Assembly (NCBI GenBank): GCA_034530875.2 | Contig: JAVRCJ020000053.1 | Coordinates: 1 to 41,820, forward strand | Direction of reading: 5' to 3' | Length of the DNA: 41,820 nt | Source of the DNA: Nostoc sp. DedSLP01 | Lineage (GTDB): Bacteria > Cyanobacteriota > Cyanobacteriia > Cyanobacteriales > Nostocaceae | Shown: piece by piece, positions 339 through 38,638 of the stretch | Position numbering within the stretch: the first letter of the stretch is position 1 | Layout of the letters: each line of letters begins with the position of its first letter | Notes under the pieces: model-generated | What the model was told of the DNA's origin: nothing | Seen by the model: only the letters and a program-made list of their open reading frames with translations | Database searches by the model: none | Translations under genes and position numbers: made by a program

Positions 339-367
339 TACACCCTACACCCTACCCCCTACACCCT
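339..367. repeat. STRR heptamer tandem repeat (TACACCC)x4 overlapping the leuS stop codon
   Basis: tacaccc tacaccc taccccc tacaccc read directly. Confidence 0.8.
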
Positions 368-2131
368 GTTGCTGACAAAGTTAATCGCTCGACCGGGAAC
401 GTAAACAACACGCCCAAGCTCCTGATTTTTGAGATACCATTGAACTGCTTTGGTTTGTCTGGCGATCGCCATCGCTTCCTCCTTTGAAGCTTCCGGTGAA
501 ATGGTAATTCTCGTTCGAGTACGTCCATCGATCTGCACTGCGACTGTCACCTGCTCGGTAATCAAGAATTCTGGATCGAACTGGGGAAAAGTTTGCTGAT
601 GAATCGAGCCAGATTCCCCCAATTGCTGCCAGAGTTCTTCTGTGACATGGGGTGCAAAAGGAGCCAACATCAACAGATACGACTTCAATTCCACCTCTGC
701 AATACTCGATTTTGATTGCAACATATTGAAATAACTCATCAAGGCGGCGATCGCTGTATTGTATTTCAGCGATTGAATATCTTTGGAAATCTTGTGGATT
801 GTTTGATGTAAACGCCGCTGCGATACCAAATCAGGCGGATTTGGTTGCAAACTATTTTTGTGTTTGTTCGCCCATTGATACACTCTATCCAAGAATCGCC
901 GGATACCAGCAATCCCGCCATCGGAAAAATCGCCACCTTGGTCGTATGGGCCCAAAAACATCAGATAAGTCCGCAAAGTATCTGCACCATAAAACTCGAT
1001 GTAGCGATCGGGATTTACCACATTACCCTTCGACTTACTCATTTTGGCACCCTGTTTCGTCAGCAATCCGTGGGCGCGGAACCGTTGAAAGGGTTCATAA
1101 AAGGGGATATGCCCCAAATCGTGCAACACCATTGTGATGAATCGACTGTACAACAGATGAAGCACAGAATGTTCTGCGCCACCAATATACATATCCACAG
1201 GCAACCATTTAGCTGTAATTGCTCCATCGAATGGAACATCAGCGCGATCGCAACAGGGATAGCGCAAAAAATACCAAGCAGAATCCAAAAAGTTATCAGA
1301 CACATCCGTTTCTCGCCGTGCGACACCACCACAGCAGGGACAGGTTGTATTGACGAATTCTGGAATGTCTGCCAAAGGCGAATTCCCTGTTCCTTGAGGC
1401 AACCAATTCTCAGTTTCCGGCAACTGTACTGGCAATTGCTCCTCTGGCACCGACACTATACCGCAGCGGGAGCAGTAAATAATCGGAATCGGCGGGCCCC
1501 AATAGCGTTGCCGTGAGATTAACCAATCTCGCAAGTGATACTGCACTGTGCCATCTATTTCGTCACGCCCAATCCAGTTGCGTTGAGCCGTTTTGACTTT
1601 TTCTGACCAGTCCAATCGATCCAAATTGTCCAACAACCGTTGAGCATACTCGGTGATTTTGAAAAACCACTGTTCCAATTCCCGTTGAATGGCGATCGCG
1701 CTGCACCGTTCGCATTCGCCGCCAATCACCTGCTCGTCGGCAAGTACTGTCTTGCAAGAAGGGCACCAGTTCACTGCCGCTTTTTTACGAACGGCTAATC
1801 CAGCTTTGAACAACTGCAAGAAAACCCACTGCGTCCATTTATAATACGCGGGATCGGTGGTTTGAATTTCATAATTCCAGCAGAAACGATTGCCAATTCT
1901 TTGCAACTGCGTTTCTCGAAATCGCTTCACATTACGTGCTGTCAATTCACGGGGATGAACGCCTTGCTTAATCGCAAAATTCTCGCTGTGAATGCCAAAG
2001 GCATCAAAGCCCATTGGCTCAAATACCGCTTTGCCCTGCATCGCCATGAAGCGGCCGTAGATGTCTGCTCCGGTAAAAGCATAGACATTCCCAACGTGCA
2101 AACCCTCAGCAGAAGGATAGGGGAACATCAT
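359..2131 (-). CDS. leuS: Leucyl-tRNA synthetase paralogue lacking the CP1 editing domain; LeuRS homology continues in frame upstream to ~2233
   Basis: MFPYPSAEGLHVGN (HIGH motif), GFDAFG, Zn knuckle CPSC...CERC, LRDWLISRQRYWG, YIGGAEH, KMSKS, C-terminal VQIDG...VYVPGRAINFV. The in-frame upstream sequence YDHRAIEARWQSIW...PFYNL is a typical LeuRS N-terminus. Confidence 0.95.
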   Translation of the reverse strand: MMFPYPSAEGLHVGNVYAFTGADIYGRFMAMQGKAVFEPMGFDAFGIHSENFAIKQGVHPRELTARNVKRFRETQLQRIGNRFCWNYEIQTTDPAYYKWTQWVFLQLFKAGLAVRKKAAVNWCPSCKTVLADEQVIGGECERCSAIAIQRELEQWFFKITEYAQRLLDNLDRLDWSEKVKTAQRNWIGRDEIDGTVQYHLRDWLISRQRYWGPPIPIIYCSRCGIVSVPEEQLPVQLPETENWLPQGTGNSPLADIPEFVNTTCPCCGGVARRETDVSDNFLDSAWYFLRYPCCDRADVPFDGAITAKWLPVDMYIGGAEHSVLHLLYSRFITMVLHDLGHIPFYEPFQRFRAHGLLTKQGAKMSKSKGNVVNPDRYIEFYGADTLRTYLMFLGPYDQGGDFSDGGIAGIRRFLDRVYQWANKHKNSLQPNPPDLVSQRRLHQTIHKISKDIQSLKYNTAIAALMSYFNMLQSKSSIAEVELKSYLLMLAPFAPHVTEELWQQLGESGSIHQQTFPQFDPEFLITEQVTVAVQIDGRTRTRITISPEASKEEAMAIARQTKAVQWYLKNQELGRVVYVPGRAINFVSNRV

Positions 2132-2359
2132 TAAATTGTAAAAAGGCTGAGCATTTGTTGCTAAATCGACCTCATGCAGTTGGTTCTGCTGCCAGATGGA
2201 TTGCCATCGGGCTTCGATTGCGCGGTGGTCGTAAGTAAAAGAAGGAGGAATAGAATCGATCGGATCTCTTCGATCCGGCTTTATAGGTCCCAGTCGTGCA
2301 TCATAAAATTCTCAATGCCTACTTGTAATATTATTGTAACACAAAGTGCCTTAAAACAC

Positions 2360-3334
2360 CTAGTAAATTTCTGGATTCACACAATGAGGTAATCTTTCGC
2401 CTTTCAAGCCAGCTATTAAATTATCAATTGCCATATTCGCCATTTTTTCTCGTGTTTGCAGACTAGCACTACCGATATGAGGAGTGATAATTAAGTTATC
2501 AAGAGTCAGCAATGGACTATCAGTAGGTATTGGTTCTGGTTGGGTGACATCAATAGCAGCAGCAGCAATTTCACCACTGCTTAACGCTTTGTATAAGGCA
2601 TTTGGATTAATAATTGCTCCCCGCGCTGTGTTGATGACAATCGCGGATTTTTTCATCAGTGCAAATTCATTTTCTGCAAACAAATTATCTGTCTCTGGAG
2701 ATAAAGGCGTATGAATTGTGACAAAATCTGATGCTTGTAATAGACTTTCAAAATTAGTAAACTCTACTCCTAATTTTTGTTCTAACTCCGTATCGCATCT
2801 ATGTCGGCTAGTATAAAGAACTCGCATATCAAAACCTTTAGCACGACGAGCGATCGCTTGACCAATCCGACCAAAACCAACAATTCCTAAGGTTGCACCC
2901 GCAATATTCGGCCCCAATAATAAATCTGGTTCCCAAGTCTGCCACTCTCCAGCACGCACAAAGCGATCTGCTTCTACTATTCTTCGCCCAGCTGCCATTA
3001 ATAACGCCCAAGTTAAATCGGCAGTTGCATCTGTCAAAACGCCGGGAGTGTGACCAACTGGGATACCGCGTGCCGTTGCCGCACCGATATCAATATTGTC
3101 ATATCCCACAGCCATCTGGCTAATCGCCTGTAAAGATATCCCCGTTTCCAGCAAGTGTTCATCAATTCGGTCGGTCAGCAAACACAGCAACCCATTTACT
3201 TCCTTCACTTTCTCCAACAACACTTTATATGGAGGTGGTTGGCGTTTTGGCCAAACCTCCACATTGGCAATTTCTTCTAGTCGCTGTAATTGGGTGGGTA
3301 AACGCCGAGTGATAAAGACTTGAGGTCGGGACAT
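2360..3334 (-). CDS. gyaR: D-isomer-specific 2-hydroxyacid dehydrogenase (D-glycerate dehydrogenase / glyoxylate reductase)
   Basis: VGYDNID, TPGVLTDATAD, Rossmann motif GIVGFGRIG, INTARG, DVTQPEP, TPHIGSAS. Confidence 0.93.
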   Translation of the reverse strand: MSRPQVFITRRLPTQLQRLEEIANVEVWPKRQPPPYKVLLEKVKEVNGLLCLLTDRIDEHLLETGISLQAISQMAVGYDNIDIGAATARGIPVGHTPGVLTDATADLTWALLMAAGRRIVEADRFVRAGEWQTWEPDLLLGPNIAGATLGIVGFGRIGQAIARRAKGFDMRVLYTSRHRCDTELEQKLGVEFTNFESLLQASDFVTIHTPLSPETDNLFAENEFALMKKSAIVINTARGAIINPNALYKALSSGEIAAAAIDVTQPEPIPTDSPLLTLDNLIITPHIGSASLQTREKMANMAIDNLIAGLKGERLPHCVNPEIY

Positions 3335-9096: not shown

Positions 9097-9782
9097 AATT
9101 TGTTGTGTTCTGTGTGGATAATTTTGGATATCATCAAAAACCATAACTTATTCGGAAAAATTGTAGACACTCAACTTAACGTTTTACCATTTTTCTTTTT
9201 CTAAGTTAATATTTCGGGCAAGTCTATTTTATATCCTCAAAATAAATCACACCCCTAATACGCCTTTCAATTTGGAAAGGGGCATGAAAAAAATGATACT
9301 CTGCAATGTAGATTGGCAAAAAGTCAGTAATTTTGACTGCCCTGCCAAATATTTGTTAACAAGTTTTGTGGATGACAGTTTCCGTAACAGTCTCAGTAGC
9401 TAGCACACTCTTTTAAAGCTTTTTTATGATTTTTATTAAGCTAATAAAAATCATATTACATAGAAAATATTTATTTAATTAAAGTCTCAAAACATTAATT
9501 TTGTTGATTTTTTAAGCTTTATATGCCAGATATATTTATTGATTTAGTATAAATTAAATCTCCATATATATTGTTGGGGAACTTGACTTTTAAGTTTTGG
9601 TAAAAAAATCGTAAAATCACTTCAAATTACTATTTCAGGATAATTACGCTTATTTTTTTTAAGAGATATAGTCAAGATATATGGATAGAAGAACAAGTAA
9701 ATGCATGTATTTACTTAAGTTTAATCGTGAGATTTTCAAGACTATTGTCGAACCAACTAACATAAATGCCCAGGGTAAACTT

Positions 9783-12700
9783 ATGGCAGATAACAATCTC
9801 TCAATCTTCAACTCAATATTACCAACTACAGCAACAGAAATCATCACTGATTACGACACATCAACAACTACAGCATCTCTTTTACCCAGTTACATAAATG
9901 TCACCATCACTAATGGCGGACAACTGAATGGAGTCTATGACGCTTGGTGTGTTAATAGTACCGTTGCAATTAGTAGAGGTACTTATAATCAAGCTAGTGT
10001 ATATTCCACCTACGGCGACATACCCGCTGGTATCCTTTATGCAGGTTCACAGACAACCAATTCGCCTGCGGCACAATACCTGAATCAACTTAAGCAAATC
10101 AACTGGTTGATAAATAACGTTACAGAAGCAAGTAACCTAGTCAACGGCAAATATCGGTACAATAATGTTGACTACACTTGGGGTGATGTACAGCTAGCTA
10201 TCTGGAAACTGCTAGGAGAAACACCTGTATTAAATAACGTAGACTACGACTCATTGGAAGTTTATAGTCAGCAGAAAGCAGATACGTTAGTGAGTTTTGC
10301 TGTAACCAATGGCACTAACTTTGTACCAGTGGCAGGGCAAGATTTTGGAGTAATTGTTAAAAGTGCTAACCTGCAACCGATTTTGATGGAAGTCAAGACA
10401 GCAGGTATTGGAGATTTTGTTTGGCATGACTTAAATGCCAATGGGGTTCAAGAGGCTAATGAAGAAGGAATAGATGGTGTAACAGTTACGTTACTTGATG
10501 GCAAGGGTAATGTTCTTGGCACCACTCTTACTGGAGACAACCCCTACACAACACAAATTGAGAAGGGCTGGTATCAGTTTGGACCGCTACTGCCCAGTAC
10601 CTATCAGGTGAAATTTAGCTTACCAACAGGCTTTAATACAGTCAGTCCTTACCTGCAAGGCAACACATCTCTAGATTCCAATGCTGACTTCCGCAATAAT
10701 TTGACCTCCGCACCTATTACCTTAATTGGTGGAGAGGTTAACAGAACTATTGATGCAGGGTTCTACAAAACAGCATCTTTAGGAGACTTCGTATTCAATG
10801 ATGCCAACAACAACGGCATTCAAGATGTAACAGAAGCAGGGGTAGCAGGGGTAAAAGTAGAATTAATCAACCCAGCCAATGGTAGTGTCATCGTGACAAC
10901 TACTACAGATGCAAATGGTGGTTACAGCTTTAGCGGCTTAACCCCTGGAAATTATCAAGTTAAATTTACATCGCCAACAGGTTACAGCTTCAGCACAGCA
11001 AATGTAGGAGATGACAGCAAAGATAGCGATGCCGACACTACAACAGGTTTAACCCAAAAAGTCACCCTCACATCAGGCGAATTTAACGGTACATTAGATG
11101 CTGGGTTAGTACAACTAGCGAGCTTAGGTAACTTTGTCTTTGAAGACAAAAACGCCAACGGTATTCAAGATGCAGGTGAGATAGGTATAGGCAATGCCAC
11201 AGTTAACCTGTTGGATACAGCAGGTAATGTGATTACCACCACCACCACAGACGGTAATGGACTCTACTCCTTCAGCAACTTACAACCAGGAGATTACAAA
11301 GTTCAATTTGTACAACCCAATGGCTTTAATGGTGTTAGTCCCGTCAATATCGGCAGTAATGATGCGATTGACAGTAATGGACTGATTACCGATGTAATTA
11401 ACCTTTCTCCAGGGGAGAATGATACAACAATCGATTCAGGGTTCTACAAAACAGCATCCTTGGGAGACTTTGTATTCAATGATGCCAACAACAACGGCAT
11501 TCAAGATGCAGGAGAAGCAGGGGTAGCAGGAGTAACAGTACAATTAATCAACCCCGTTGACGGTAGTGTTATCAGTACAACCACCACAAATGCAAATGGT
11601 GGTTATAGCTTTAGCGGCTTAACCCCCGGAGATTATCAAGTCAAATTTACATCTCCAACAGGTTACAGCTTCAGCACAGCAAATGTAGGAGACGACATCA
11701 AAGATAGCGATGCCGACTGCACAACTGGCTTAACTCAAAAAGTCACCCTCACATCAGGAGAATTTAACGGCACATTAGATGCTGGGTTAGTACAACTAGC
11801 TAGCTTAGGAGATAAAGTTTGGTTAGACAAAAACGCCAACGGCATCCAAGATGCAGGTGAAACGGGAGTAAGTGGTGTAACTGTTACCTTAACTAGTGGC
11901 GGTTCAGATGGCATCATCAACGGCATTGGCGATACCACCATCACCACAATTACCAATGCTAATGGCAACTACAACTTCGCTGGACTAACACCAGGTCAAC
12001 AATATCAAGTCGGGTTCTCTAATTTGCCTGCTGGATATCAATTTACTCAAGCTAACATAGGTGCTAATGATGCTGTAGATTCCGATGCTAATGCCAGTAC
12101 TGGCAAAACTCAGATTGTTACCCTGGCTTCTGGGGAAAACAACCTGACTTTAGATGCAGGAATTTATCAAAATGCCGGCGACCTGTCAATTACCAAAACC
12201 GATGGTTTGACAACTGTTATCCCCGGACAACAAATTACCTACACCATCGTAGCTAAAAATAATGGTCTGATTACTGTTACCAATGCCTTGGTGAGTGATA
12301 TCATACCCAGCAATTTGACCAATATTGCTTGGACTAGCTTAGCCACTGATGGTGCAACGGACAATCAAACTAGTGGAACAGGCAACATCAACGATTACGT
12401 CACCTTAGCAGCCGGTAGCAGTATCACCTATACGGTGAATGCAACTGTAGCCGCTAACCCGCTTTCTTCCTATACCATTCCCACTACCATTAGCTTGACA
12501 AGTAGCGGTTCGAGCGATGGTAGTAAGGGCAACATTCGCACCTTCTCTGCTAATGGTGTTTCCGTCAACGCCAGTGCTTTCAGTAGTACCAGCACGGGAA
12601 TCTGGAATACCGCTGCTCTGGGTATCTATGGCAGTTGGGGTTTAGGTGTAATTGATGGCACTGAAGATGGTAATAATGGAAGCCATCGCGTCGATAATTC

Positions 12701-15176
12701 CGGTCTTAATAACTACGTTTTGCTAGAATTCTCTGAGTCGGTGGTTATTAACAAAGCTGCATTAGCTTACGTTGATGGTGGGGACAGTGATATCTCTATC
12801 TGGGTTGGTAACTTCAACAATCCTTACAGCAATCACCTTACCTTAAATAGTTCGGTTCTCAATAGCTTCGGCTTTACCGAATTCAACAACGGTGGTAGCA
12901 CCGATCGCACGGCAGATATCAATGCGAATAACATTGTAGGTAACGCTGTGGTAATTGCCGCTAAAATCGGCGACACCGACGATAGCTTTAAGCTCAAATC
13001 TCTTGATATCCTCAAAGCAACGACTCAAATCAGTGGCTCTCTTACTAATACTGCTACAATTACAGGCCCCACTGGGTTCACTGATACCAACACCAGCAAC
13101 AACAGCGCCACCGACACAGACACGATTATTGCTGCTTCTACTGTTAAAATAGGCGATCGCGTTTGGTACGATGTCGATGGAGATGGCGTTCAAGAAGCAG
13201 GTGAAGCAGGAGTTTCTGGTGTAGCTGTTAAGCTGTTTAACCAAGCAGGTACTCAAATTGGGACAACGACCACCGATACCAATGGTCTTTACCAATTCAA
13301 CGTCAACGCCAACAGCAGCTACAGCGTTCAATTCGTTCAACCCACTGGGTTCGATGGATTTACCACCGCCAATATGGGAAGCGATGCGGTTGATAGTGAT
13401 GTTGTTAATGCCAACGGCACAACGGCTCAATTCTCTGTCGGTACAACTGATAACCTGACAATTGATGCAGGACTTATTAAAAACATCGGCGACCTGTCAA
13501 TTACCAAAACCGATGGTTTGACAACTGTTACCCCTGGACAGAAGATTACCTACACCATTGTCGCTAAAAATAATGGTCTGATGACTGCTACCAATGCCTT
13601 GGTGAGCGATATTATGCCAACGAATCTCACCGATGTGACTTGGACTAGTGTCGCTACCGGAGGAGCTAAAGACAATCAAATCAGTGGAACAGGCAACATC
13701 AACGATTACGTAACCTTGACAGCAGGTAGTAGTATCACTTATACCGTAAACGGTACGGTAGCTAGTAACCCCGTCTCTGGTTCTACAGGTAGTCTCATCA
13801 CATTTGACCTCGCTACCAATCCTAGTAGTGCGCTGGATGGAACGGATGGAAATACTCGGACGTTTACAAAGGATGGTATTACTGTTACAGCCCGCGCCTT
13901 TAGCCGCGTTGATGGGACAAATGGAGCTTGGAGTAATGCTTATCTGGGTAGCTATTCTGGCGGTGGTTTAGGTGTTACCGATAGCAGTGAAGGAAATGGA
14001 AGTGGAACTCATCGCGTTGATAACGTTGGAGGGCGAGATAACTACGTCCTATTCCAATTCTCCGAATCTGTTATTTTAGACCGCGCCTATCTGCAATACG
14101 TCATCAATGACAGTGATATCTCAGTATGGATTGGTAACTTTAACAACAACAATACCATCACGACTTTAAACGACTCAATTCTTAACGGCTTTGGGTTCAA
14201 CGAAGTTAACGAAACCAATCTCACAAGCGATCGCTGGGCAGATGTGAATGCAGGTAAATATGCGGGTAACACCATCATCATCGCCGCTTCTGCGGTAGAC
14301 GCAACTCCCGAAGATGAGTTCAAGATCCGCTATCTGGATATTCTTAAACCTACTCCCGCTTCTTTAGTCAACACTGCTACAATTACAGGCCCAACTGGTT
14401 TCACTGACACCAACACCAGCAACAACAGTGCCACCGATACTGACACTATTCTCTCTGCTTCCACCCCATCAGCCCCTGGTGTACGTACTCCCGGCTTCTG
14501 GCAGAACACAACCTGGCAAACCTTCTGGGACGGTATTCAAGGCAACGAACCATCACAAAAAACAGAGTTCAACTTCGCAGACGGCGATCTTCTGTTCGCA
14601 CCTTACACTAATTCTGCACAACCTGGAAAAGTTCTCGATCCAGTAACCGGACAATATGAAATTGGTCTACTAGTCGGCGATTACAACCGCAATGGTAAAA
14701 CTGATGCAGGTGAAGATACTCTCTTCTATTCTCGTAAACAGGCACTCCAGATTGTTGATGCCGCCCAACACCCGAACGGAGATAAGCGTTACGATCTTGG
14801 TCGCTCTTTAGTTGCTGGTTGGTTGAATTACCTCGCTGGCAACCCCATTGACACCGCCAATACAACTGATAAAGATGCTCGATACTACATTAACGAAGGC
14901 ATCAATTGGTTGCAAGCCATAACTCCAGACGAAAATGGCGATAAGAAGGGCGATGGCGCATTGAACAGTATGACTGGTAGCAGTGTTAATAGCCCTCTTG
15001 CTGATACTTACTGGAATCAAGGCATTTCGAGTGCTTCCAGCTTGCCAAATCCCTACAGTTCCAACACCAATGTTCTTTATGGATTAGAGGCTGGTAGTGT
15101 AATTAATTCCAATCTAGATAAGTACAACAACGGTTTGGGTCTTGCAGATCGTGTTTACTACGGAGGAAACGCATAA
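9783..15176 (+). CDS. Large surface adhesin: N-terminal thioester-like domain, 6 SdrD B-like repeats, 2 DUF11 domains with inserted domains, unknown C-terminal domain
   Basis: Repeats ASLGDFV.xDxNxNG.QD.GE...YxFxxLxPGxYxVxF...DSDAD...DAG; DUF11 motifs DLSITKTD...ITYTI...N.G and LTNTATI...NNSATDT; N-terminal AWCV / VQLAIW / LQPIL. ATG 9783 is preferred over 9681, but the start is uncertain. Confidence 0.9.
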   Translation: MADNNLSIFNSILPTTATEIITDYDTSTTTASLLPSYINVTITNGGQLNGVYDAWCVNSTVAISRGTYNQASVYSTYGDIPAGILYAGSQTTNSPAAQYLNQLKQINWLINNVTEASNLVNGKYRYNNVDYTWGDVQLAIWKLLGETPVLNNVDYDSLEVYSQQKADTLVSFAVTNGTNFVPVAGQDFGVIVKSANLQPILMEVKTAGIGDFVWHDLNANGVQEANEEGIDGVTVTLLDGKGNVLGTTLTGDNPYTTQIEKGWYQFGPLLPSTYQVKFSLPTGFNTVSPYLQGNTSLDSNADFRNNLTSAPITLIGGEVNRTIDAGFYKTASLGDFVFNDANNNGIQDVTEAGVAGVKVELINPANGSVIVTTTTDANGGYSFSGLTPGNYQVKFTSPTGYSFSTANVGDDSKDSDADTTTGLTQKVTLTSGEFNGTLDAGLVQLASLGNFVFEDKNANGIQDAGEIGIGNATVNLLDTAGNVITTTTTDGNGLYSFSNLQPGDYKVQFVQPNGFNGVSPVNIGSNDAIDSNGLITDVINLSPGENDTTIDSGFYKTASLGDFVFNDANNNGIQDAGEAGVAGVTVQLINPVDGSVISTTTTNANGGYSFSGLTPGDYQVKFTSPTGYSFSTANVGDDIKDSDADCTTGLTQKVTLTSGEFNGTLDAGLVQLASLGDKVWLDKNANGIQDAGETGVSGVTVTLTSGGSDGIINGIGDTTITTITNANGNYNFAGLTPGQQYQVGFSNLPAGYQFTQANIGANDAVDSDANASTGKTQIVTLASGENNLTLDAGIYQNAGDLSITKTDGLTTVIPGQQITYTIVAKNNGLITVTNALVSDIIPSNLTNIAWTSLATDGATDNQTSGTGNINDYVTLAAGSSITYTVNATVAANPLSSYTIPTTISLTSSGSSDGSKGNIRTFSANGVSVNASAFSSTSTGIWNTAALGIYGSWGLGVIDGTEDGNNGSHRVDNSGLNNYVLLEFSESVVINKAALAYVDGGDSDISIWVGNFNNPYSNHLTLNSSVLNSFGFTEFNNGGSTDRTADINANNIVGNAVVIAAKIGDTDDSFKLKSLDILKATTQISGSLTNTATITGPTGFTDTNTSNNSATDTDTIIAASTVKIGDRVWYDVDGDGVQEAGEAGVSGVAVKLFNQAGTQIGTTTTDTNGLYQFNVNANSSYSVQFVQPTGFDGFTTANMGSDAVDSDVVNANGTTAQFSVGTTDNLTIDAGLIKNIGDLSITKTDGLTTVTPGQKITYTIVAKNNGLMTATNALVSDIMPTNLTDVTWTSVATGGAKDNQISGTGNINDYVTLTAGSSITYTVNGTVASNPVSGSTGSLITFDLATNPSSALDGTDGNTRTFTKDGITVTARAFSRVDGTNGAWSNAYLGSYSGGGLGVTDSSEGNGSGTHRVDNVGGRDNYVLFQFSESVILDRAYLQYVINDSDISVWIGNFNNNNTITTLNDSILNGFGFNEVNETNLTSDRWADVNAGKYAGNTIIIAASAVDATPEDEFKIRYLDILKPTPASLVNTATITGPTGFTDTNTSNNSATDTDTILSASTPSAPGVRTPGFWQNTTWQTFWDGIQGNEPSQKTEFNFADGDLLFAPYTNSAQPGKVLDPVTGQYEIGLLVGDYNRNGKTDAGEDTLFYSRKQALQIVDAAQHPNGDKRYDLGRSLVAGWLNYLAGNPIDTANTTDKDARYYINEGINWLQAITPDENGDKKGDGALNSMTGSSVNSPLADTYWNQGISSASSLPNPYSSNTNVLYGLEAGSVINSNLDKYNNGLGLADRVYYGGNA
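10756..11860 (+). repeat. Recent internal duplication in the adhesin (10756-11179 vs 11437-11860, offset 681 bp)
   Basis: Near-identical nucleotide blocks, both starting cagggttctacaaaacagcatc and ending caagatgcaggtga. Confidence 0.85.
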
Positions 15177-15424: not shown

Positions 15425-18400
15425 ATGAAAAATACAGAAGATACTTTTCTAGAGTCTTATGCAAATCCTGAACAATTCTGGTGTGGTTTCTTACATGGTT
15501 TTACAGCCCCTGTTACAGAACAGGAAAGACATCAATTATTAATTGAATGGAATCAAACTCAGACAGATTATCCCCAAGATAAGTGCATTCATGAGTTATT
15601 TGAGGAACAGGTAGAGAAAACACCCGATGCGATCGCGGTGGTATTTGTAGACGCGCAAAGCGCGACTTCTCCTACGCATAGCGTCTCCGACAGGAGAAGA
15701 GTAAATCGACAACTTACTTATCAAGAACTCAATCAACGTGCGAATAAATTAGCTAATTATTTGCAATCATTAGGAGTAGGATCGGAAGTTTTAGTAGGTA
15801 TTTGTGTAGAACGTTCCCTAGAAATGCTTATAGGAATATTAGGGATTCTCAAAGCTGGTGGAGCATACCTACCTTTAGATATTGCCTATCCTCAAGAGCG
15901 TTTAGCTTTCATGCTGTCAGATTCTCAAGTTTCAATATTGTTAACACAACAGCATTTAGTTGAAAAACTTCCCGAACATCAAGCTAGAATAATTTGTTTA
16001 GATACTGATTGGGAAGATATCGTCAAAACACCAAGTCAACCAACAAAGATAGCCGTTAAGCCTAGTAACCTCGCCTATGTTATTTACACTTCTGGCTCAA
16101 CAGGTCAACCTAAAGGCGTTCTTATTTCCCACTGTAACGTCGTTCGTTTATTTGCAGCCACACAGCCTTGGTTTCAATTTAGCCAGAATGATATTTGGAG
16201 TTTGTTCCATTCCTACGCATTTGACTTTTCCGTGTGGGAAATTTGGGGTGCGCTTCTCTATGGTGGTCGTCTTGTTATTGTTCCTTATTATGTGAGTCGT
16301 TCTCCTGAATTATTTTATAATTTATTATTGCAAGAAAAAATTACAGTTCTGAATCAAACACCTTCTGCTTTCCAACAACTGATACAATTTGAAGCATCTT
16401 TAAGTAATAATATTAATTCTACTAGTAATTTGAACTTACGCTTTGTTATTTTTGGTGGAGAAGCACTGAATATTCAAAGCTTAAAACCTTGGTTTGACAG
16501 ACATGGAGACAAGTTTCCTCAATTAGTTAATATGTACGGTATTACGGAAACTACTGTTCATGTTACCTATCGCCCCATCAATATAGCTGATTTAAATTCT
16601 TCATCAAAAGTAATTGGTTGTACGATTCCGGACTTACAATTTTACATATTAGATTCTCATCTGCAACCTGTACCTGTTGGTGTAGCTGGTGAAATTTATG
16701 TCGGAGGTGCAGGTTTAGCGCGTGGTTATTTAAATCGACCAGAATTAACTGCCCAAAGGTTTATTTCCCATCCTTTTAATAATCAACCAGAAGCGCGTCT
16801 TTATAAAACAGGTGATTTAGCTCGTTATTTACCTAATGGCGATCTTGAGTATCTAGGAAGAATTGATAATCAAGTAAAAATTCGCGGTTTCAGAATCGAG
16901 TTAGGAGAAATAGAAACATTATTAAATCAACATCCAAATTTGAGAGAAGCTAAAGTTATCGCTAGGGAAGATCTTCCTGGAGATAAGAGATTAGTCGCCT
17001 ATATTATACCCAACTTTATAAAAGCTGAATTTAACTCATTACAATCAGAAATCTCATATCAAATACGCGATTACCTCAAACAGCAGTTACCTGATTATAT
17101 GATTCCTGCTGCTTTTGTAGTGTTAGAGTGTTTCCCTTTAACTAATAATGGTAAAGTTGACTATCGCGCTCTTCCTGCTCCCAATTACACATCTGTTCGA
17201 AGTAATTATGTTGCTCCTCAGAATCCTACGGAAAAAGTTATTGCTGATATTTGGAGTCAGGTGCTGAAGGTAGATAATATTGGAATTGATGACAACTTTT
17301 TTGAATTAGGTGGACATTCATTACTAGCGACACAAGTTCTATCTAGGATTAGACAGGCATTTAACCAAGAAATCCCAATCCATTTATTATTTGAATTTCC
17401 TACTATTGTTGAATTTTCCAAGCATATTGGCATTACAAAAACAAATAATAATAATAATTTATTAATACCACTAATAGAGCCAAGACAACAGCTAGAAATA
17501 CCCCTATCTTTTGCTCAACAACGTCTCTGGTTTTTAGACCAGTTACAACCTAATAACACTGCTTATAATCTCGTTTACAGTTTGAAAATTCAGGGTTTAC
17601 TTAACATCCCTATTTTGGAAAAAAGTATCGCTGACATCATAGAGCGTCACGAATTATTACGCACAAATTTTATTGTTATCGACGGACAAGCGATACAGAC
17701 TATTAATAATAATTGGAAAAATAGCTTTAGTTTACCCGTCATTAATTTACAATGGCTATCTGACGATCGACTAAAAATAGAAGTTGCAACAATAGCTAAA
17801 CAGGAAGTAGAAACATCTTTTAATCTTGCGAAAGATACTTTATTTCGCGTTCGTCTGTTGCAATTGAGCGCAGAAAAATTTATATTGATATTTAATATTC
17901 ATCACATCATTTTTGATGGCTGGTCTTTTGGGATACTATTTGCGGAATTGAACGCAATTTATACAGCTTATTGTGAAGGTTTGACTTCTCCATTAACGAA
18001 ACTTTCTATTCAGTATGCAGACTTTAGTTTATGGCAAAGAAAGTGGCTTACTGATAGGAGTTTAGAATCACAATTTAATTACTGGAAACAGCAATTAAGT
18101 GGAATTTTACCTATATTAGAATTACCGATAGACCGTCCTCGTCCCAGAGTCCAAACTTACACAGGAACAACAAAAACCTTCGTTTTATCACCAGAGTTAA
18201 CTGCAAGTATCACATCTTTTTCTCAAAAAGAGGGTGTGACTTTGTTCATGACTTTACTAACAGCATTTAAAGTCTTACTTTGTCGTTATAGTGGACAAGA
18301 AGATGTGATTGTAGGAACTCCCATTGCGGGACGTAACCGCAGAGAAATTGAGGGATTAATAGGATTTTTTGTTAATACTTTAGCATTACGGATTAATTTA

Positions 18401-21400
18401 GCTGAACATCCGAGTTTTAGAGAATTACTAAGTCGAGTCCGACGGATATGTTTAGAAGCATACACCCATCAGGATGTACCATTTGAGCAGCTAGTTGAAG
18501 TTTTGCAACCAGAACGCGATCCCAGTCATACTCCTATTTTTCAGGTGATGTTTGCTTTGCAAAATGCACCAATAGGAGAATTACAATTACCAAATTTAAA
18601 TGTAGGAGTTTTAGAACCATTAGTAACAACGGCAAAATTTGACATCACTTTGTCAATGGAAGAACTAAATGGGCAGTTAATAGGTGAGTGGGAATATAAT
18701 ACGGATTTATTTGATGATTCAACAATGGAGCGAATGCTCAAAAATTTCCAAGTTTTATTATCTGAGATATTGACCGATCCCGAACAAAATATTTGGCAAT
18801 TACCTTTACTAACTGAATCAGAAAAGCATCAATTATTAATTGCTTGGAATCATAGTGAGGTAAATATTAATAATGATAAATATATTTATCAATTGTTTGA
18901 AGAACAGGTAGAAAAAACACCTGATGCGATTGCGGTGGTGTTTGAAAATGAAGAAATAACCTATGAAGAACTCAACAAGAAAGCTAATCAAGTAGCAAAT
19001 TATCTGCGAAAACTAGGAATCAGTACGAATAAATTAGTCGGATTGTGTTTAGAACCATCTTTAGCAAGAATTATTGGGTTATTAGGAATTCTCAAAGCTG
19101 GAGGTGTCTATTTACCACTAGACCCAGTTTACCCTCAAGAACGTCTCAGGTTTATGATTGAGGACTCCCAAATTACTATTCTTTTGACCCAAAAATCTTT
19201 AGCTGATAAGTTATTCATAAATTTGCTGCAAGTTGTGAATTTAGATGCAGATTGGCTAGATATTGGAATCGAATCTACAAACAATCTGCAAAGTTGTATA
19301 AGTGCGGACAATCTGGCTTATATTATTTATACCTCTGGTTCAACAGGAACACCGAAAGGAGTTTTGATTTCACATGAAGCGATCGCTCATCACTGTCAGA
19401 ATGTTATACAACACTACCAGCTCAATTCGAGCGATCGCATTTTACAATTTGCCTCCCTCAGTTTCGATGCTTCTTTGGAGCAAATTTTAACAACGCTAGT
19501 AGTGGGAGCTACGCTGATCGTTGCTGACGCGAAATTATTATCTCCCTGGGAATTTCACCAAAAATTGATTGATTATAGTTTGACTGTTGTTGACATTCCT
19601 CCTGCTTACTTAACTCAATGGTTGCAGTCTCTAGATGAAAAGACTTGTTTCGCTCCCATAAATAAACTGAGATTAGTCATTTGCGGTGGTGAAGCACTAC
19701 CAGCAGAAACCCTAAAAATTTGGTACAAAAGTCCGATAAAAGGAGTAAGCTTAATTAATGCTTACGGGCCTACAGAAGCAACCATAACAGCGATCGCTTT
19801 TACAGTTCCTCAAGACATTACAGCAATCGAATCTTATACTAACATTCCCATTGGTCGTCCCTTACCAAACCGCAAAGTATATATTCTCGATCCTCAAAAA
19901 AATCTCGTTCCTATCGGTGCTATAGGGGAGTTATATCTTGGGGGAGAGAGTTTAGCACAAGGTTATTTAAATCGACCGACATTAACGAATGAGAAGTTCA
20001 TTTTTCATCCACTAGAAAATACCAAATTATATAAAACGGGAGATTTAGCTCGTTATTTACCTGATGGTAATATCCAATTTCTGGGACGCATCGATAACCA
20101 AGTTAAAATACGCGGTTTCAGAATAGAATTAGGAGAAATCGAAGCTTTATTAAATCAACATCCAGATTTGAAGGAAGCTAAAGTTATCGCTAGAGAATAT
20201 ATACCTGGCGAACAAAGATTAATTGCTTATATTATTCCCTACTCTGCCAAAGAGGCAGTAGATAATAAAGAAATAACCTTATTACAATCACAAATATCCC
20301 ATAAATTACGTGATTATTTGAAACAGAAGCTACCTGATTATATGGTTCCTTCTGCTTTCGTGACTTTAGAATCTTTCCCTTTGACTCCCAATGGTAAAAT
20401 TGACTATCATGTTCTTCCTGCTCCCGATTTTTCTGCTTCTCAAATTAAATATACGGCTCCAATAACTCATACACAAAAAATTCTTGCTAATATCTGGAGT
20501 CAAATCCTGAAAGTAGAAAATATTGGCATTGATGATAACTTCTTTGAGTTAGGCGGACATTCATTGCTGGCAACTGTTCTTGTCTCGCGTATCAGACAAA
20601 CCTTTAATCAAGAAATACCATTAAGATTACTTTTTGAATATCCTACTATTTCGCAACTTTCTCTTGCGATCGGTATTACTGAACAAACTAACAATTATTT
20701 ATTATTGCCACCAATTGAACCCAGACAGCAACAAGAAAATCTACCACTTTCATTTGCTCAACAACGTCTTTGGTTTCTCGCGCAAATAGAACCCAACAGC
20801 ACTGCTTATAATATGCCCTTCAAGCTACGACTTGAGGGTGTATTAAATATTACTGCCTTAGAAAAAAGTATAAGCGAAATTATACAACGTCATGAAATTC
20901 TGCGAACTAATTTTATTTCAAAATACGGAGAACCAACTCAAGTAATTACTAAAAATATTGATTTCAAATTACTTATCATTGATTTACAATCGTTGCCTAA
21001 TAAACAACGAGAAATAGAAGCAGAAAACATAGCTCAACAAGAAGCAGAAACACCTGTTAACCTAGCAAAAGATGTTCTCTTTCGTGTTAAACTGTTGCGG
21101 TTGAAGGCAGAATCGCATCTACTGTTATTTAATATTCATCACATTATTTTTGATGGTTGGTCTGATGATATATTGCAACGGGAACTGGCAGCACTTTATC
21201 AAGCCTTTTCTACAGGAAATCCTTTACAATTACCATCCCTTTCCATCCAATATGCTGATTTTGCCTTGTATCAACACCGCTGGTTTACAGATGAATTTTT
21301 AGAACCTCAACTTGTTTATTGGAAACAACAATTAGGTGGAGACTTACCTGTTTTAGAATTACCTATGGACTCTCCTCGTCCACAAGTACAAACTTACCAA

Positions 21401-24400
21401 GGTGCTTCCCATACTCTGTTGTTATCTTCGGAATTAACCGCAAACATCAAAACCCTCTGCCAAAAAGAAGGGGTCACTTTATTTATGACTCTATTGGCAG
21501 CATTTAAAGTATTACTTTCTCGCTACAGTGGACAAGAAGATATAATTGTGGGAACTCCCATCGTGGGACGAAATCGCACAGAAATTGAAAATTTAATTGG
21601 GTTTTTTGTCAACACTTTGGCTTTGCGGAGCGATTTGAGTGGAGATCCTAGTTTCCGAGAATTACTAAATCGCGTTCGACAAGTTACTTTAGACGCTTAT
21701 ACTCATCAAGATTTACCTTTTCAAAAGCTAGTAGAAGAACTCAAACTTGCAAAAAGTGTCAGTTATAATCCGGTATTTCAAGTTTGGTTTAACATGGTTA
21801 CCTTGGTTCATAATTCTCTCAAACTTAATGATTTAATAGTCGAACCAATTTCTATTATTGAAACCACTTCTAAGTTTGATTTGAGTCTCTATGTAGGAGA
21901 AGAAAATAATCAAATTCATTTGCGATTTGTTTACAATACGGTTCTCTTCAATGTAGATACAATTCAATGGATGGCAACGCATTTCCAGAAATTGCTAGAA
22001 AGAATTTCTACTCATCCAGAAAAAACAATCTCTAGTTTCTCGATTTTAACTGAAACGGAGCGTTATGAATTAACACATCAGCGTCATCAAGTTAGTCCTA
22101 CTAATTCATTTATAGAATTTCCAAAACAAGAAATTGAACAATCTATACCATCGCGATTTGAGCAGCAAGTAGCAAAATACCCTCATCATATTGCTGTCAA
22201 AACTCAAAATTATCAATGGACTTATAAAGAGTTAAATACTCAAGCGTGGAGGATAGCTCAAGCACTTCTTGAGGAAAATAACGAGCAAGAGGGTAAAATT
22301 GCCTTGTTATTTGACCATGATGCACCAATGATAGCTACAATATTGGGAGTCCTAAAAGCAGGTAAAACTTATATTCCTCTTGACCCCAAATATCCCCAAG
22401 ATAGGGTTTTATATATTCTCGAAGATTCCCTTGCTCAAGTGGTTTTAACTAATCACAAAAATTTGAGTTATGCTCAACAATTAGTTCAGGATAAATTGCC
22501 TGTTATTAATATTGACGATATTCAGATTAATGATTCGTTTTTAGAAATTAACCAAGAAATATCACTAGATAATATTGCCTATATTCTTTATACTTCTGGT
22601 TCGACAGGAAAACCCAAAGGAGTTATCCAAAATCACCGCAATGTCTTACATTTCATTAGAAACTATACTAATAATCTTCATATTTCATCAGAAGACAAAT
22701 TAAGTTTATTTGCATCTTATAGTTTCGATGCAGCAATTATTGATATTTTTTCGGCTCTTTTGAATGGTGCTACTCTGTATCCGTTTGATATCAAATCAGA
22801 AGGTTTAGCTCACTTAGCTGAGTGGTTAGAAGTAGAGAAAATTACTATCTATCATTCGACTCCTACGGTTTATCGACATTTTATTGAGATATTAAATTCC
22901 AAAGAATCAATTGCCAAAAAGCAGCTTTCTCAGGTGCGTTTAGTGGTATTGGGAGGAGAACAAGTTGTCAAAAATGATGTTGAATTATATCAAAAATTAT
23001 TTGCAGATGAATGTATTTTTGTGAATGGTTTAGGCTCAACAGAATCTTCTTTCAATCTTCAATATTTAATTGATAAAAACACCAAAATTACTCAGAGGAA
23101 TGTTCCAGCAGGTTATGCTTTTGAAGACACAGAAATCATTCTGCTTAATCGTGAATGTAAGCCAACCGATATCTATGGAGAAATAGCGATTAGAAGTGCT
23201 TATATTTCCCTTGGATATTGGCAGAAACCAGAATTAACAAAAGCAGCATTTTTAGAAGATCCGGAGGGTGGAAATAAAAGAATTTACCGCACTGGAGACT
23301 TGGGACGCTTGCGAGCTAATGGTGTCATAGAATGTTTGGGTAGAAAAGATTTTCAAGTTAAAATTCGTGGTTTTCGTATTGAATTAGGAGAAATTGAAGC
23401 TTTATTAAACCAACATCCTCAAATTAAAGAAACTGTTGTCATTGCTAGAGAATCTATGAATGGAGAGAAGCTATTAGTAGCTTATATTATTCCTAGAAAA
23501 GGTGAGAATATTATCAATGGAATAAAACAGTACTTGGAGCAAAAATTACCTGATTATATGCTTCCTGCTGCTTTTGTTGTACTTGATGTTATGCCTTTAA
23601 CTCCTAATGGTAAAATTAATCGTCTTGCGCTTCCCATTCCTGATTTTAACAAGTTGAAATCGGCAGAATATACTGCCCCATCTGATGATTTAGAACTAAA
23701 ACTTACTAAAATTTGGGAAAATGTGTTGGGTGTTCATCCTCTTGGGTTGAATGATAACTTTTTTGATGTAGGAGGACATTCTCTACTAGCTATAAGGCTA
23801 GTTACTCAAATTGAAAATATATTAGGTAAAAATATTACTCCAAATACTTTTTTTCAAGCTCCTACAATTAAAAAGCTAGCTAATATACTTCGTCAAAAAG
23901 AATTTTCAACTTCTAATTCTTCATTAGTTCCGATTCAACCTCATGGCTCCAAAAGACCTTTTTTCTATATACATACTATTTACGGAAGTTTGATATATAG
24001 CCTAAATTTGTTGTCTAAATTAGATGCAGATCAACCAGTTTATGGATTACAAGCAAAGGGTTTAGATGGTATAGAATCTCCCCATACCTGTGTTGAGGAT
24101 ATGGCATCTCATTATATTAAAGAAATAAAAACTGTTCAGCCACACGGGCCATATTTTCTGGGGGGATGGTGTGCAGGAGGTGTGATAGCTTATGAAATGG
24201 CACAACAACTTTACGCTCAAGGAGAGACTGTTGAATTACTAACTATTTTTGATGCCTATCCTCCGAAAATGATACCTTCAGCAAATAAAGGTGTGAATTC
24301 TGTATCTCCTATCAAAATAAAGTTATCTCGTATCCATGAATCTGTATTGAGTTTAAAGGATATGATTAAGCGCAGCTGTAGCTCTTTTGCTAATTTGACA

Positions 24401-24796
24401 TTTCAACAGCAGATAAAATCGGTTTTGGAAAAGATTAATCACCGAATTGAAAATCTAATTAAGGAAAATGTTTACCAATTTTATGTAAGGAAGAATCTGC
24501 CTTTACCTTCTGCATTTATCAACTTAGCAGTGAGAGATGCGATCGCGATTGCTTACAAAAATTATTATCCTACAGTTTATCCAGGGAAAGTAATCTTTTT
24601 TAGAGCAGTCGAACAAACTCAAGAATATACTCGTTATCTGGAAAGGTGGGAAGAATTAGCTGGTGGCGGTTTAGAAATTCATGATATTCCTGGTCATCAT
24701 GATAGTATTATGTCTGAACCTCATGTACGGGTTTTAGCTGAAAAATTAAAAGTTTGTATTGAAAGGTTGACTATCAAGGGGCGATGTCTGAGTTGA
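15425..24796 (+). CDS. Non-ribosomal peptide synthetase, A-T-C-A-T-C-A-T-TE
   Basis: Three YTSGSTGxPKG / YK(R)TGDL / KIRGFRIELGEIE A domains; T-domain GGHSL serines at ~17318, 20561 and 23780; C-domain HHIIFDG at ~17900 and 21137; TE motif GWCAGG at 24164-24181. Confidence 0.97.
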   Translation: MKNTEDTFLESYANPEQFWCGFLHGFTAPVTEQERHQLLIEWNQTQTDYPQDKCIHELFEEQVEKTPDAIAVVFVDAQSATSPTHSVSDRRRVNRQLTYQELNQRANKLANYLQSLGVGSEVLVGICVERSLEMLIGILGILKAGGAYLPLDIAYPQERLAFMLSDSQVSILLTQQHLVEKLPEHQARIICLDTDWEDIVKTPSQPTKIAVKPSNLAYVIYTSGSTGQPKGVLISHCNVVRLFAATQPWFQFSQNDIWSLFHSYAFDFSVWEIWGALLYGGRLVIVPYYVSRSPELFYNLLLQEKITVLNQTPSAFQQLIQFEASLSNNINSTSNLNLRFVIFGGEALNIQSLKPWFDRHGDKFPQLVNMYGITETTVHVTYRPINIADLNSSSKVIGCTIPDLQFYILDSHLQPVPVGVAGEIYVGGAGLARGYLNRPELTAQRFISHPFNNQPEARLYKTGDLARYLPNGDLEYLGRIDNQVKIRGFRIELGEIETLLNQHPNLREAKVIAREDLPGDKRLVAYIIPNFIKAEFNSLQSEISYQIRDYLKQQLPDYMIPAAFVVLECFPLTNNGKVDYRALPAPNYTSVRSNYVAPQNPTEKVIADIWSQVLKVDNIGIDDNFFELGGHSLLATQVLSRIRQAFNQEIPIHLLFEFPTIVEFSKHIGITKTNNNNNLLIPLIEPRQQLEIPLSFAQQRLWFLDQLQPNNTAYNLVYSLKIQGLLNIPILEKSIADIIERHELLRTNFIVIDGQAIQTINNNWKNSFSLPVINLQWLSDDRLKIEVATIAKQEVETSFNLAKDTLFRVRLLQLSAEKFILIFNIHHIIFDGWSFGILFAELNAIYTAYCEGLTSPLTKLSIQYADFSLWQRKWLTDRSLESQFNYWKQQLSGILPILELPIDRPRPRVQTYTGTTKTFVLSPELTASITSFSQKEGVTLFMTLLTAFKVLLCRYSGQEDVIVGTPIAGRNRREIEGLIGFFVNTLALRINLAEHPSFRELLSRVRRICLEAYTHQDVPFEQLVEVLQPERDPSHTPIFQVMFALQNAPIGELQLPNLNVGVLEPLVTTAKFDITLSMEELNGQLIGEWEYNTDLFDDSTMERMLKNFQVLLSEILTDPEQNIWQLPLLTESEKHQLLIAWNHSEVNINNDKYIYQLFEEQVEKTPDAIAVVFENEEITYEELNKKANQVANYLRKLGISTNKLVGLCLEPSLARIIGLLGILKAGGVYLPLDPVYPQERLRFMIEDSQITILLTQKSLADKLFINLLQVVNLDADWLDIGIESTNNLQSCISADNLAYIIYTSGSTGTPKGVLISHEAIAHHCQNVIQHYQLNSSDRILQFASLSFDASLEQILTTLVVGATLIVADAKLLSPWEFHQKLIDYSLTVVDIPPAYLTQWLQSLDEKTCFAPINKLRLVICGGEALPAETLKIWYKSPIKGVSLINAYGPTEATITAIAFTVPQDITAIESYTNIPIGRPLPNRKVYILDPQKNLVPIGAIGELYLGGESLAQGYLNRPTLTNEKFIFHPLENTKLYKTGDLARYLPDGNIQFLGRIDNQVKIRGFRIELGEIEALLNQHPDLKEAKVIAREYIPGEQRLIAYIIPYSAKEAVDNKEITLLQSQISHKLRDYLKQKLPDYMVPSAFVTLESFPLTPNGKIDYHVLPAPDFSASQIKYTAPITHTQKILANIWSQILKVENIGIDDNFFELGGHSLLATVLVSRIRQTFNQEIPLRLLFEYPTISQLSLAIGITEQTNNYLLLPPIEPRQQQENLPLSFAQQRLWFLAQIEPNSTAYNMPFKLRLEGVLNITALEKSISEIIQRHEILRTNFISKYGEPTQVITKNIDFKLLIIDLQSLPNKQREIEAENIAQQEAETPVNLAKDVLFRVKLLRLKAESHLLLFNIHHIIFDGWSDDILQRELAALYQAFSTGNPLQLPSLSIQYADFALYQHRWFTDEFLEPQLVYWKQQLGGDLPVLELPMDSPRPQVQTYQGASHTLLLSSELTANIKTLCQKEGVTLFMTLLAAFKVLLSRYSGQEDIIVGTPIVGRNRTEIENLIGFFVNTLALRSDLSGDPSFRELLNRVRQVTLDAYTHQDLPFQKLVEELKLAKSVSYNPVFQVWFNMVTLVHNSLKLNDLIVEPISIIETTSKFDLSLYVGEENNQIHLRFVYNTVLFNVDTIQWMATHFQKLLERISTHPEKTISSFSILTETERYELTHQRHQVSPTNSFIEFPKQEIEQSIPSRFEQQVAKYPHHIAVKTQNYQWTYKELNTQAWRIAQALLEENNEQEGKIALLFDHDAPMIATILGVLKAGKTYIPLDPKYPQDRVLYILEDSLAQVVLTNHKNLSYAQQLVQDKLPVINIDDIQINDSFLEINQEISLDNIAYILYTSGSTGKPKGVIQNHRNVLHFIRNYTNNLHISSEDKLSLFASYSFDAAIIDIFSALLNGATLYPFDIKSEGLAHLAEWLEVEKITIYHSTPTVYRHFIEILNSKESIAKKQLSQVRLVVLGGEQVVKNDVELYQKLFADECIFVNGLGSTESSFNLQYLIDKNTKITQRNVPAGYAFEDTEIILLNRECKPTDIYGEIAIRSAYISLGYWQKPELTKAAFLEDPEGGNKRIYRTGDLGRLRANGVIECLGRKDFQVKIRGFRIELGEIEALLNQHPQIKETVVIARESMNGEKLLVAYIIPRKGENIINGIKQYLEQKLPDYMLPAAFVVLDVMPLTPNGKINRLALPIPDFNKLKSAEYTAPSDDLELKLTKIWENVLGVHPLGLNDNFFDVGGHSLLAIRLVTQIENILGKNITPNTFFQAPTIKKLANILRQKEFSTSNSSLVPIQPHGSKRPFFYIHTIYGSLIYSLNLLSKLDADQPVYGLQAKGLDGIESPHTCVEDMASHYIKEIKTVQPHGPYFLGGWCAGGVIAYEMAQQLYAQGETVELLTIFDAYPPKMIPSANKGVNSVSPIKIKLSRIHESVLSLKDMIKRSCSSFANLTFQQQIKSVLEKINHRIENLIKENVYQFYVRKNLPLPSAFINLAVRDAIAIAYKNYYPTVYPGKVIFFRAVEQTQEYTRYLERWEELAGGGLEIHDIPGHHDSIMSEPHVRVLAEKLKVCIERLTIKGRCLS
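15647..15703 (+). repeat. In-frame SDR-like mini-element inside NRPS module 1
   Basis: VVF-VDAQSATSPTHSVSDRRRV-NRQLTY versus VVF-E-NEEITY in module 2; GC-rich with hairpin TTCTCCT...AGGAGAA. Confidence 0.75.
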
Positions 24797-28929: not shown

Positions 28930-28970
28930 AATCGAAGGGTTTCAAAGGGTGTGGCGCAACGGGTGTAGAG

Positions 28971-29008
28971 TGTTACAATCCCACGTTTTAAAACGTGGGA
29001 TTGTAACA
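28971..29008. repeat. Perfect 38-bp palindrome (REP-like / terminator) after the RTX gene
   Basis: TGTTACAATCCCACGTTTT|AAAACGTGGGATTGTAACA. Confidence 0.85.
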
Positions 29009-32096: not shown

Positions 32097-32170
32097 ATGC
32101 GTCACCAACAAAGGCGATCGCATTCCTTTGTTCCTTTGACAAATCTGCAAAGTGCATTGAGGGCAAAAAC

Positions 32171-34916: not shown

Positions 34917-34917
34917 A

Positions 34918-38599: not shown

Positions 38600-38638
38600 C
38601 CTAAGTTAAAGCTTTTAGCAACGTCTGTTAGTCACAAT

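Follow-up and report, generated by a model that had tools for sequence, protein, structure and literature searches.

On the minus strand of the window analysed here (the whole stretch of 41,820 nucleotides from Nostoc sp. DedSLP01) lies a leucyl-tRNA synthetase gene, leuS2, which is devoid of the CP1 editing domain and has no start codon at the head of its conserved protein. How is such a gene expressed, and in which circumstances? A sequence-only reading had described the CP1 deletion and delimited the gene as 359..2233. This extent of the body was right; position 2233, taken as the start, is in fact a Tyr codon, the first in-frame ATG being found at 2131, 34 codons inside the conserved protein. 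The main feature of the locus was overlooked, i.e. a start-less gene preceded by a leader that contains a codon for the cognate amino acid (Table 1). The best explanation that we can offer, and which we hold to be rather probable, is that this uORF leader and a -1 slip at its "hungry" Leu codon drive leuS2.

Table 1. Features of leuS2 and of its leader (positions in the window).
Feature	Position	Strand	Remark
TACAAT, a -10-like hexamer at the upstream boundary of the mobile cassette	2333..2338	(-)	conserved in alignment; putative promoter
Shine-Dalgarno-like site for the uORF, GAGAA (GAGGA/GGAG in many relatives)	2309..2313	(-)	
uORF M(M)HDWDL-stop, last sense codon Leu (CTA)	2281..2304	(-)	
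G-GAC-CTA, predicted site of the -1 slip, with Asp in the P and Leu in the A site; new frame GGA-CCT	2284..2290	(-)	putative slip
Hairpin, 2-3 nt past the uORF stop, 5-6 nt past the Leu codon	2261..2278	(-)	
Extension of the protein at its N-terminus, leuS frame; remnant of the N-terminal end of SrmL (PDxxDP)	2234..2287	(-)	
Body of a CP1-less bacterial-type LeuRS, also devoid of the leucine-specific domain	359..2233	(-)	624 aa from Tyr1; TIGR00396 and PDB 3ziu match
HIGH motif variant HVGN	2087..2098	(-)	
Nine-residue linker RDEIDGTVQ in place of CP1	1541..1567	(-)	
TKQG replacing the leucine-specific domain, then KMSKS	1031..1060	(-)	

The motifs PSAEGLHVGN (2116-2087), AQRNWIGR (1588-1565), DEIDGT (1564-1547), VQYHLRDW (1546-1523) and HGLLTKQGAKMSKS (1072-1031) are all found on the minus strand where the sequence-only reading had placed them. 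About 10 residues occupy the CP1 region, vs about 190-200 in CP1-bearing LeuRS, and a Pfam search of the protein finds no editing domain whereas long relatives have PF13603; the deletion is thus confirmed. The protein scores 712 bits against the bacterial LeuRS model TIGR00396, above the curated cut-off of 548, and aligns with the Mycoplasma mobile LeuRS (PDB 3ziu) as one stretch, with full-length structures as two or three. The HIGH-type (HVGN) and KMSKS motifs are both present, and M36, F37, Y39, D77, F315, Y321, H355 and H359 align with T. thermophilus LeuRS, at residues which we take to form the leucine pocket. Judged from these features leuS2 is an intact second LeuRS without CP1, predicted to charge tRNA(Leu) with leucine. 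Its AlphaFold model, with a mean pLDDT of 59.6 and values below 50 at the junction, was set aside. A zinc-sparing paralogue was ruled out: leuS2 has cysteines 157/160/174/177, which are absent from the housekeeping enzyme. HVGN and the lack of the leucine-specific domain had also been counted with the deletion. Both are present as described; however, PSA(E/A)GLH(V/I)GN and the missing domain are common to nearly all relatives with an intact region among the best 120, a mix of short and CP1-bearing forms, and since CP1-bearing relatives have both traits, these stand outside the CP1 deletion.

That leuS2 is accessory, as had been supposed, is borne out by a separate full-length leuS on contig C65 of the same genome. 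Its higher GC is also real (47.7%, against 40.2% in the window as a whole and 45.5% in the housekeeping leuS); this value is reached by 7.8% of 2824 long ORFs, and its GC3 of 0.50 by 0.8%. We ruled out an assembly artefact, because the CP1-less junction is the same in relatives of 74-96% identity and is spanned gap-free by three outside contigs, two DNA contigs of other studies (X6, X13) and one from an RNA library (X18). In the X18 run the contigs cover leuS2 and its leader with no indel; they carry no strand, level or start information. Neither is leuS2 a strain-specific decay product: pooled dN/dS is 0.06-0.16 in the three long segments, vs 0.31 in the six-codon linker, synonymous sites of distant copies being close to saturation, and short homologues exist in other genomes. 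As for codon usage, 34 of the 50 Leu codons of the body are TTG and none is CTA. The genome has two tRNA genes each for Leu CAG, UAG, GAG and CAA, and 7 Met-CAT genes, which suggests an extra tRNA set.

By its sequence, the leuS2 lineage is of the Chloroflexota/CPR type. In two of the three non-cyanobacterial genomes that we checked, its CP1-bearing form is the only leuS found; in the third genome, and in both cyanobacteria that we checked, it is a second copy, and so is a short form from Roseiflexaceae. The lineage is present at 22 places (CP1 being kept at 4) in 20 of the 389 genomes from the family of the window, in 4/400 order-level and 1/400 class-level genomes, and in none of 400 other genomes of the phylum sample, with five candidates scored per genome. 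Some copies were found on plasmids. No conserved partner gene lies near leuS2, the best-shared neighbours within 8 kb being found in 6/18 loci, and 17 loci contain no tRNA gene nearby. The horizontal acquisition proposed earlier agrees with this patchy distribution, the plasmids and the lack of common neighbours; as far as sequence comparison tells, leuS2 is rare, mobile and under purifying selection. Upstream of the cassette, 6/18 loci (L013-L016, L021, L023) contain a pair of small unknown genes, frequently accompanied by an AraC-like one. Broken or contig-cut copies are found in L021, L023, L024, L026 and L183, the 5' end being replaced by foreign DNA in the latter. A metagenome pattern scan gave 24 matches, 5 preceding leuS and 19 chance-like ones without a leuS match; viral scans gave one chance-like match and nothing else.

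The rest of the window holds a repeat common to many public-run contigs directly after the leuS2 stop (300-376), a large SdrD-B repeat surface protein, an RTX-repeat protein and a cluster of TPS, TPR-CHAT, DUF928, CHASE2 and AAA genes (9681-15176 and 27361-40180), a three-module NRPS A-T-C-A-T-C-A-T-TE (15425-24796, plus strand) 13 kb from leuS2—linkage in relatives was compared within 8 kb—and a DDE transposase in two overlapping ORFs at the contig end (40388-41729, plus strand).

The absence of a start codon is shared by the cyanobacterial genes. The 34 codons ahead of ATG-2131 are probably translated, because they are under protein selection (dN/dS 0.164). Between the leader and Tyr1, ATG, GTG and TTG are missing from 25 of the 27 distinct cyanobacterial genes, the other two having unconserved TTGs. 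Among 63 non-cyanobacterial loci, 57 have an intact 5' end; an in-frame start exists in 56 of these and the uORF in none. Three records in or next to the clade, seen as protein only (P0027, P0039, P0040), have a Met start of their own in the annotation.

What precedes the cyanobacterial genes has a constant order: ribosome-binding site, ATG, two NAY codons, TNG, GAC, a CTA or CTG codon, TAA, two further bases and the hairpin, leuS lying in the -1 frame. We found this arrangement at 34 of 35 cyanobacterial loci, the 4 CP1-bearing copies among them; as certain loci are duplicates, the number of distinct leaders is 26. At the only locus that lacks it the 5' end is broken. All these loci are related by descent, and the counts therefore make them look more independent than they are. 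A purine-rich stretch occupies -12..-8 of the uORF in the 26 distinct leaders. Likeness to the relatives' contigs stops at 2338-2339; a promoter consensus scan did not list the TACAAT site, and several relatives have a TTGACA-like -35. Among 27 distinct leuS leaders, 16 have CTG and 11 have CTA as codon 6; G-GA is conserved in 25/26, and GAC is replaced by GAA in one leader. For the strict NAY at codons 2-3 our guesses are a dependence on queuosine-tRNA or plain A-richness for initiation.

Six core pairs of the hairpin are found in 27/27 distinct leuS leaders, one pair being G-U in 5; its energy ranges from -8.9 to -18.5 kcal/mol, and of 3000 random genomic 24-mers 0.2% attain this level. The leader alignment contains no two-sided compensatory change in the hairpin, and over its 96 nt the leader shows no unusual stability (z 0.39). 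The N-terminal extension is open in all 34 leaders, with lengths of 39, 54, 57 or 72 nt, every one a multiple of 3, and, owing to the fixed 2-nt spacer, no stop interrupts the -1 frame across the hairpin. Of the six Leu codons only CTA and CTG leave the next two -1-frame codons Leu-free, and only these two occur. The leuS-frame third positions of GGA, CCT and both CCG are invariant in 26/26 leaders, vs 1 of 119 four-fold sites of the gene body; this comparison indicates selection at the nucleotide level on the conserved shift-site region. A loose leader scan of the own genome gave 22 candidate rows, with a hairpin of -8.9 kcal/mol or lower at the leuS2 locus only, and it found no intact srmL, the second gene with this leader (see below). 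One decayed leader, MYDWNP-stop, has a -1 frame of just 51 codons in L210 (G1027:C66, about 20240-20285), where leuS appears lost.

Is the Leu codon linked to the enzyme? A stop-plus-hairpin pattern blind to codon 6 was run on the 389 genomes, with the reversed pattern as control. It gave 27 sites vs 1 in the control: all 22 leuS2 places and five others, of which two are chance-like at the start of another gene, one is a decayed leader and two precede a PheRS-like gene. In both of the last loci the leader reads MNYLDF-stop and the gene, in the -1 frame, was identified as SrmL (PheS-related mystery ligase, NF051887). Protein search added three more srmL genes (3/5 genomes), with Asp-Phe at uORF codons 5-6. 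Codon 6 is then Phe (TTC/TTT) in 5/5 srmL loci (L194, L195, L218, L219, L220) and G-GA is conserved in all five; the codon matches the downstream enzyme in both families. The leuS2-type hairpin is weak or different in 3/5 srmL leaders; an in-frame TTG occurs in at least two of these three, and the stop is gone from one. This Leu/Phe swap counts as one evolutionary event. We found only a catalytic core and an anticodon-binding domain in SrmL, and the Phe codon of its leader suggests that it works as a backup PheRS. A plasmid search with the srmL leader gave nothing clear, and a literature search found no paper on SrmL. Besides, 35 of 43 cyanobacterial-type SrmL records start at L or M of LTNP, probably too late. 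In L215 a MetRS-like gene (16106-17851, plus strand), 25% identical to metG of the window genome, lies 6 kb from srmL; it has no in-frame ATG ahead of its HIGH-like motif, and a leader of the leuS2/srmL type was not seen there.

A T-box is found upstream of the leuS2 relative in 4/4 Ktedonobacterial loci tested and in 0/2 cyanobacterial ones (L176, L178); by reading of the alignment the specifier position is CUG in one aligned Ktedonobacterial leader. Because these Ktedonobacterial genes have T-boxes, tRNA charging is sensed by another device in relatives of the leuS2 donor. An Rfam T-box search of window 2100-2500 gave no match up to E 1, nor has the leader any Rfam match. The srmL hairpin encodes PDLTDP, of which leuS2 keeps a PDxxDP or PGxxDP vestige, and DL[ST]DP..G is present in 58/75 more distant SrmL records, which indicates that the motif is native to SrmL. 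Judged from this vestige, the leader probably moved from srmL, in its Phe version, to an incoming Chloroflexota-type leuS where it would have replaced the T-box.

We propose that promoter, leader and leuS2 would form a self-contained mobile cassette, encoding a backup LeuRS turned on by a shortage of Leu-tRNA(Leu). Ribosomes would initiate at the ATG of the uORF. With ample Leu-tRNA the Leu codon would be read, termination would occur at TAA and no enzyme would be made. If Leu-tRNA for CUR codons became scarce (by starvation, or by damage or inhibition of the housekeeping LeuRS), the ribosome would wait with Asp-tRNA on GAC and the A site empty. The hairpin, then at the mRNA entry, could promote a -1 slip to GGA that puts a Pro codon in the A site, and the slip would yield a LeuRS of about 647 aa, which might recharge tRNA(Leu) and close the loop. 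That the leader senses the cognate aminoacyl-tRNA is in our opinion highly probable; that a -1 hungry-codon slip is the route to the enzyme we hold with moderate confidence. We lean, though only slightly, towards a wider statement: a portable leader programmed by one codon, in which the -1 hungry slip would switch on a backup LeuRS (Leu) or SrmL/PheRS (Phe), most of them editing-less, upon shortage of the cognate aminoacyl-tRNA only.

The slip would not be an easy one. In re-pairing from GAC to GGA, the Asp tRNA makes one Watson-Crick pair, one wobble and one mismatch, and the site is not of the X-XXY-YYZ type; according to one study, hungry -1 slippage is low on U-UUC, a better site than G-GAC, while slippage of the P-site tRNA during A-site waiting is established in vitro (PMC13620113). 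Two loci on different branches, L014 and L018, also speak against the slip: their uORF has TGA as codon 4, yet leuS is intact there with a normal dN/dS (0.09-0.19). The lack of two-sided changes in the hairpin, the deviant srmL leaders and the three records with a Met start count against it as well. The hairpin spacing of 5-6 nt fits the 5-9 nt given as usual for -1 stimulators in a recoding review (PMC5009743).

Other routes to the enzyme have to be weighed against the slip. The cognate aminoacyl-tRNA could be sensed in the same way and coupled to leuS2 through re-initiation at a near-cognate codon, either the CTG that overlaps uORF codon 4 or an ATT/ATC downstream, a stalled or terminating ribosome opening the hairpin or being pushed back by it. 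We judge this coupling unlikely. This CTG is present in 22 of the 27 distinct genes, and all 5 others have an in-frame ATT/ATC further downstream; in L014 and L018 the TGA at uORF codon 4 produces a CTGA stop-start overlap, and in ermC a leader event unfolds the mRNA and allows initiation, as the review reports (PMC5009743). However, the CTG has become CTC/CTT in these 5 genes on several branches and is missing from srmL leaders; near-cognate starts exist in every leuS2 gene but at no constant position, and re-initiation leaves the fixed G-GA and the fixed 2-nt spacer unexplained. Still on the uORF, the stop itself could be shifty: the Leu-tRNA in the P site would shift by +2, or hop 7 nt backwards onto a CTN codon, which would give a constant low expression without amino-acid sensing. 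The prfB-like arrangement, with a sense codon ahead of the stop, and a CTN codon 7 nt upstream in 26/26 leuS leaders speak for it; srmL leaders lack Phe at the corresponding place, and it would be mere chance that codon 6 fits the downstream enzyme in two families, so that we find such a stop very unlikely.

Most database records assume a start at ATG 2131, and the leader would then act as a transcription attenuator or be inert. It is hardly credible in our eyes: 23 of the 40 nearest database records are indeed annotated to start downstream of the first helix, and a weak terminator-like site overlaps the hairpin, but the 34 codons that such a start would leave out correspond in alignment to the first helix of solved LeuRS and evolve under purifying selection, and no U-tract follows the hairpin in relatives. 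The sequence-only reading had rather thought of immunity to a LeuRS inhibitor, as with AgnB2, or of aminoacyl-tRNA supply to a non-ribosomal pathway; the immunity would be constitutive. Its third suggestion, mistranslation under stress, may still apply. The gene is plasmid-borne and patchy, as resistance genes are, the leucine-specific domain is missing as in AgnB2, the one trait in common with it, and the NRPS is in the same window; inhibitor rescue even fits the hungry-codon slip, which it might trigger. Against immunity speaks that T42, A102, Q413 and Q573, the four determinants of AgnB2 (PMC5059758), are replaced in leuS2 by P40, N101, R235 and M398, i.e. the sensitive-type residues; against supply, no neighbour within 8 kb is common to more than 6/18 loci and none is, by reading, a biosynthetic or peptidyl-transferase partner. 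The start-less layout moreover speaks against constitutive expression, and we regard both functions as improbable.

Apart from its expression, the loss of CP1 calls for an explanation of its own. The proposed frameshift switch does not need it, as the 4 CP1-bearing copies with the leader show. With FastTree, CP1-bearing cyanobacterial copies are nested among short ones; with IQ-TREE on 26 of the 67 sequences, a single loss is not rejected (AU p 0.51), and given this value we do not claim several losses, or a regain, within cyanobacteria. In the FastTree phylogeny only, a separate short lineage including the Roseiflexaceae record suggests at least one more loss. The R-to-H change before LRDW was discarded as a mark of the loss, since it is unspecific: H occurs in 75/85 short and in 22/110 long proteins. 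Streamlining of a backup enzyme used only briefly is a plausible cause of the loss, which we put a little short of even; mischarging tolerated, or useful for relieving stalls, is possible with less likelihood, escape from an inhibitor acting via the editing site would be surprising, and some other cause more surprising still.

If the hungry-codon slip is true, leuS2 would be a natural case of starvation frameshifting put to productive use; the leader would take the place of the T-box at the level of translation, and would hint that SrmL is a backup PheRS. A leader of 45 bases, with its natural Leu/Phe swap before two unrelated synthetases, makes the question of productive hungry frameshifting testable by reporter. 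Our data also suggest that most database entries of the LeuRS2 and SrmL families would have wrong starts. Enzymes with and without CP1 that occur in nature under the same switch would give a means to ask when cells abandon proofreading. We found no published description of leuS2 or its leader, in a search that excluded most subscription papers and the supplements of genome-wide frameshift surveys; in the accessible parts of two papers, the LeuRS duplicates listed are archaeal only (PMC9437257) and a second cyanobacterial LeuRS is not mentioned (PMC4893482).

The LeuRS of Mycoplasma mobile is the housekeeping enzyme of a parasite. Like leuS2 it has neither CP1 nor leucine-specific domain; the linkers, KEEIDGKIT (PMC3643597) vs RDEIDGTVQ, have the same length and 4/9 identical residues, the tetrapeptides are GKDG and TKQG, and the M. 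mobile nonapeptide supports charging without CP1 (same source). By contrast leuS2 is accessory, mobile and regulated, and its closest relatives are CP1-bearing LeuRS of the Chloroflexota type; the trees being built without M. mobile, the two losses may be convergent. AgnB2 (PMC5059758) is also a plasmid-borne second LeuRS without the leucine-specific domain, but it is full length (822-aa chain) and 39% identical to leuS2. In the cyanobacterial loci retrieved, srmL has the same leader with Phe as its codon 6; SrmL differs as a class II enzyme, and its hairpin is weak in 3/5 loci.

For the regulation, the auxiliary TrpRS of Streptomyces is controlled by leader-peptide attenuation. T-box leaders (RF00230) resemble the leuS2 leader in that the charging of the cognate tRNA controls a synthetase gene, and differ in that control here is apparently exerted by the reading frame, not by transcription termination. 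Hungry-codon frameshifting (Gallant; the dnaX switch), as cited in PMC5009743 and PMC13620113, likewise involves a P-site slip awaiting a scarce aminoacyl-tRNA; the 2016 review (PMC5009743) knows of no productive hungry-codon frameshift for a starvation-specific protein. The nearest layout is that of the +1 shifts of prfB (RF2) and antizyme, for which the same review describes a short zero-frame ORF with its stop, an out-of-frame main gene without start and feedback by the product, plus, for antizyme, a 3' structure near the shift site (PMC5009743). In leuS2 too a short ORF1 with initiation signals overlaps an ORF2 without its own start; at the opposite, the shift would be -1, the proposed sensor is a cognate sense codon and not a stop or polyamines, and there is no internal Shine-Dalgarno. 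The CP1-less LeuRS is as a kind of enzyme already known; the direction of the shift and the signal that the leader would sense differ from those of prfB and antizyme, with which, by analogy, it would share the principle of autoregulation while belonging to neither.
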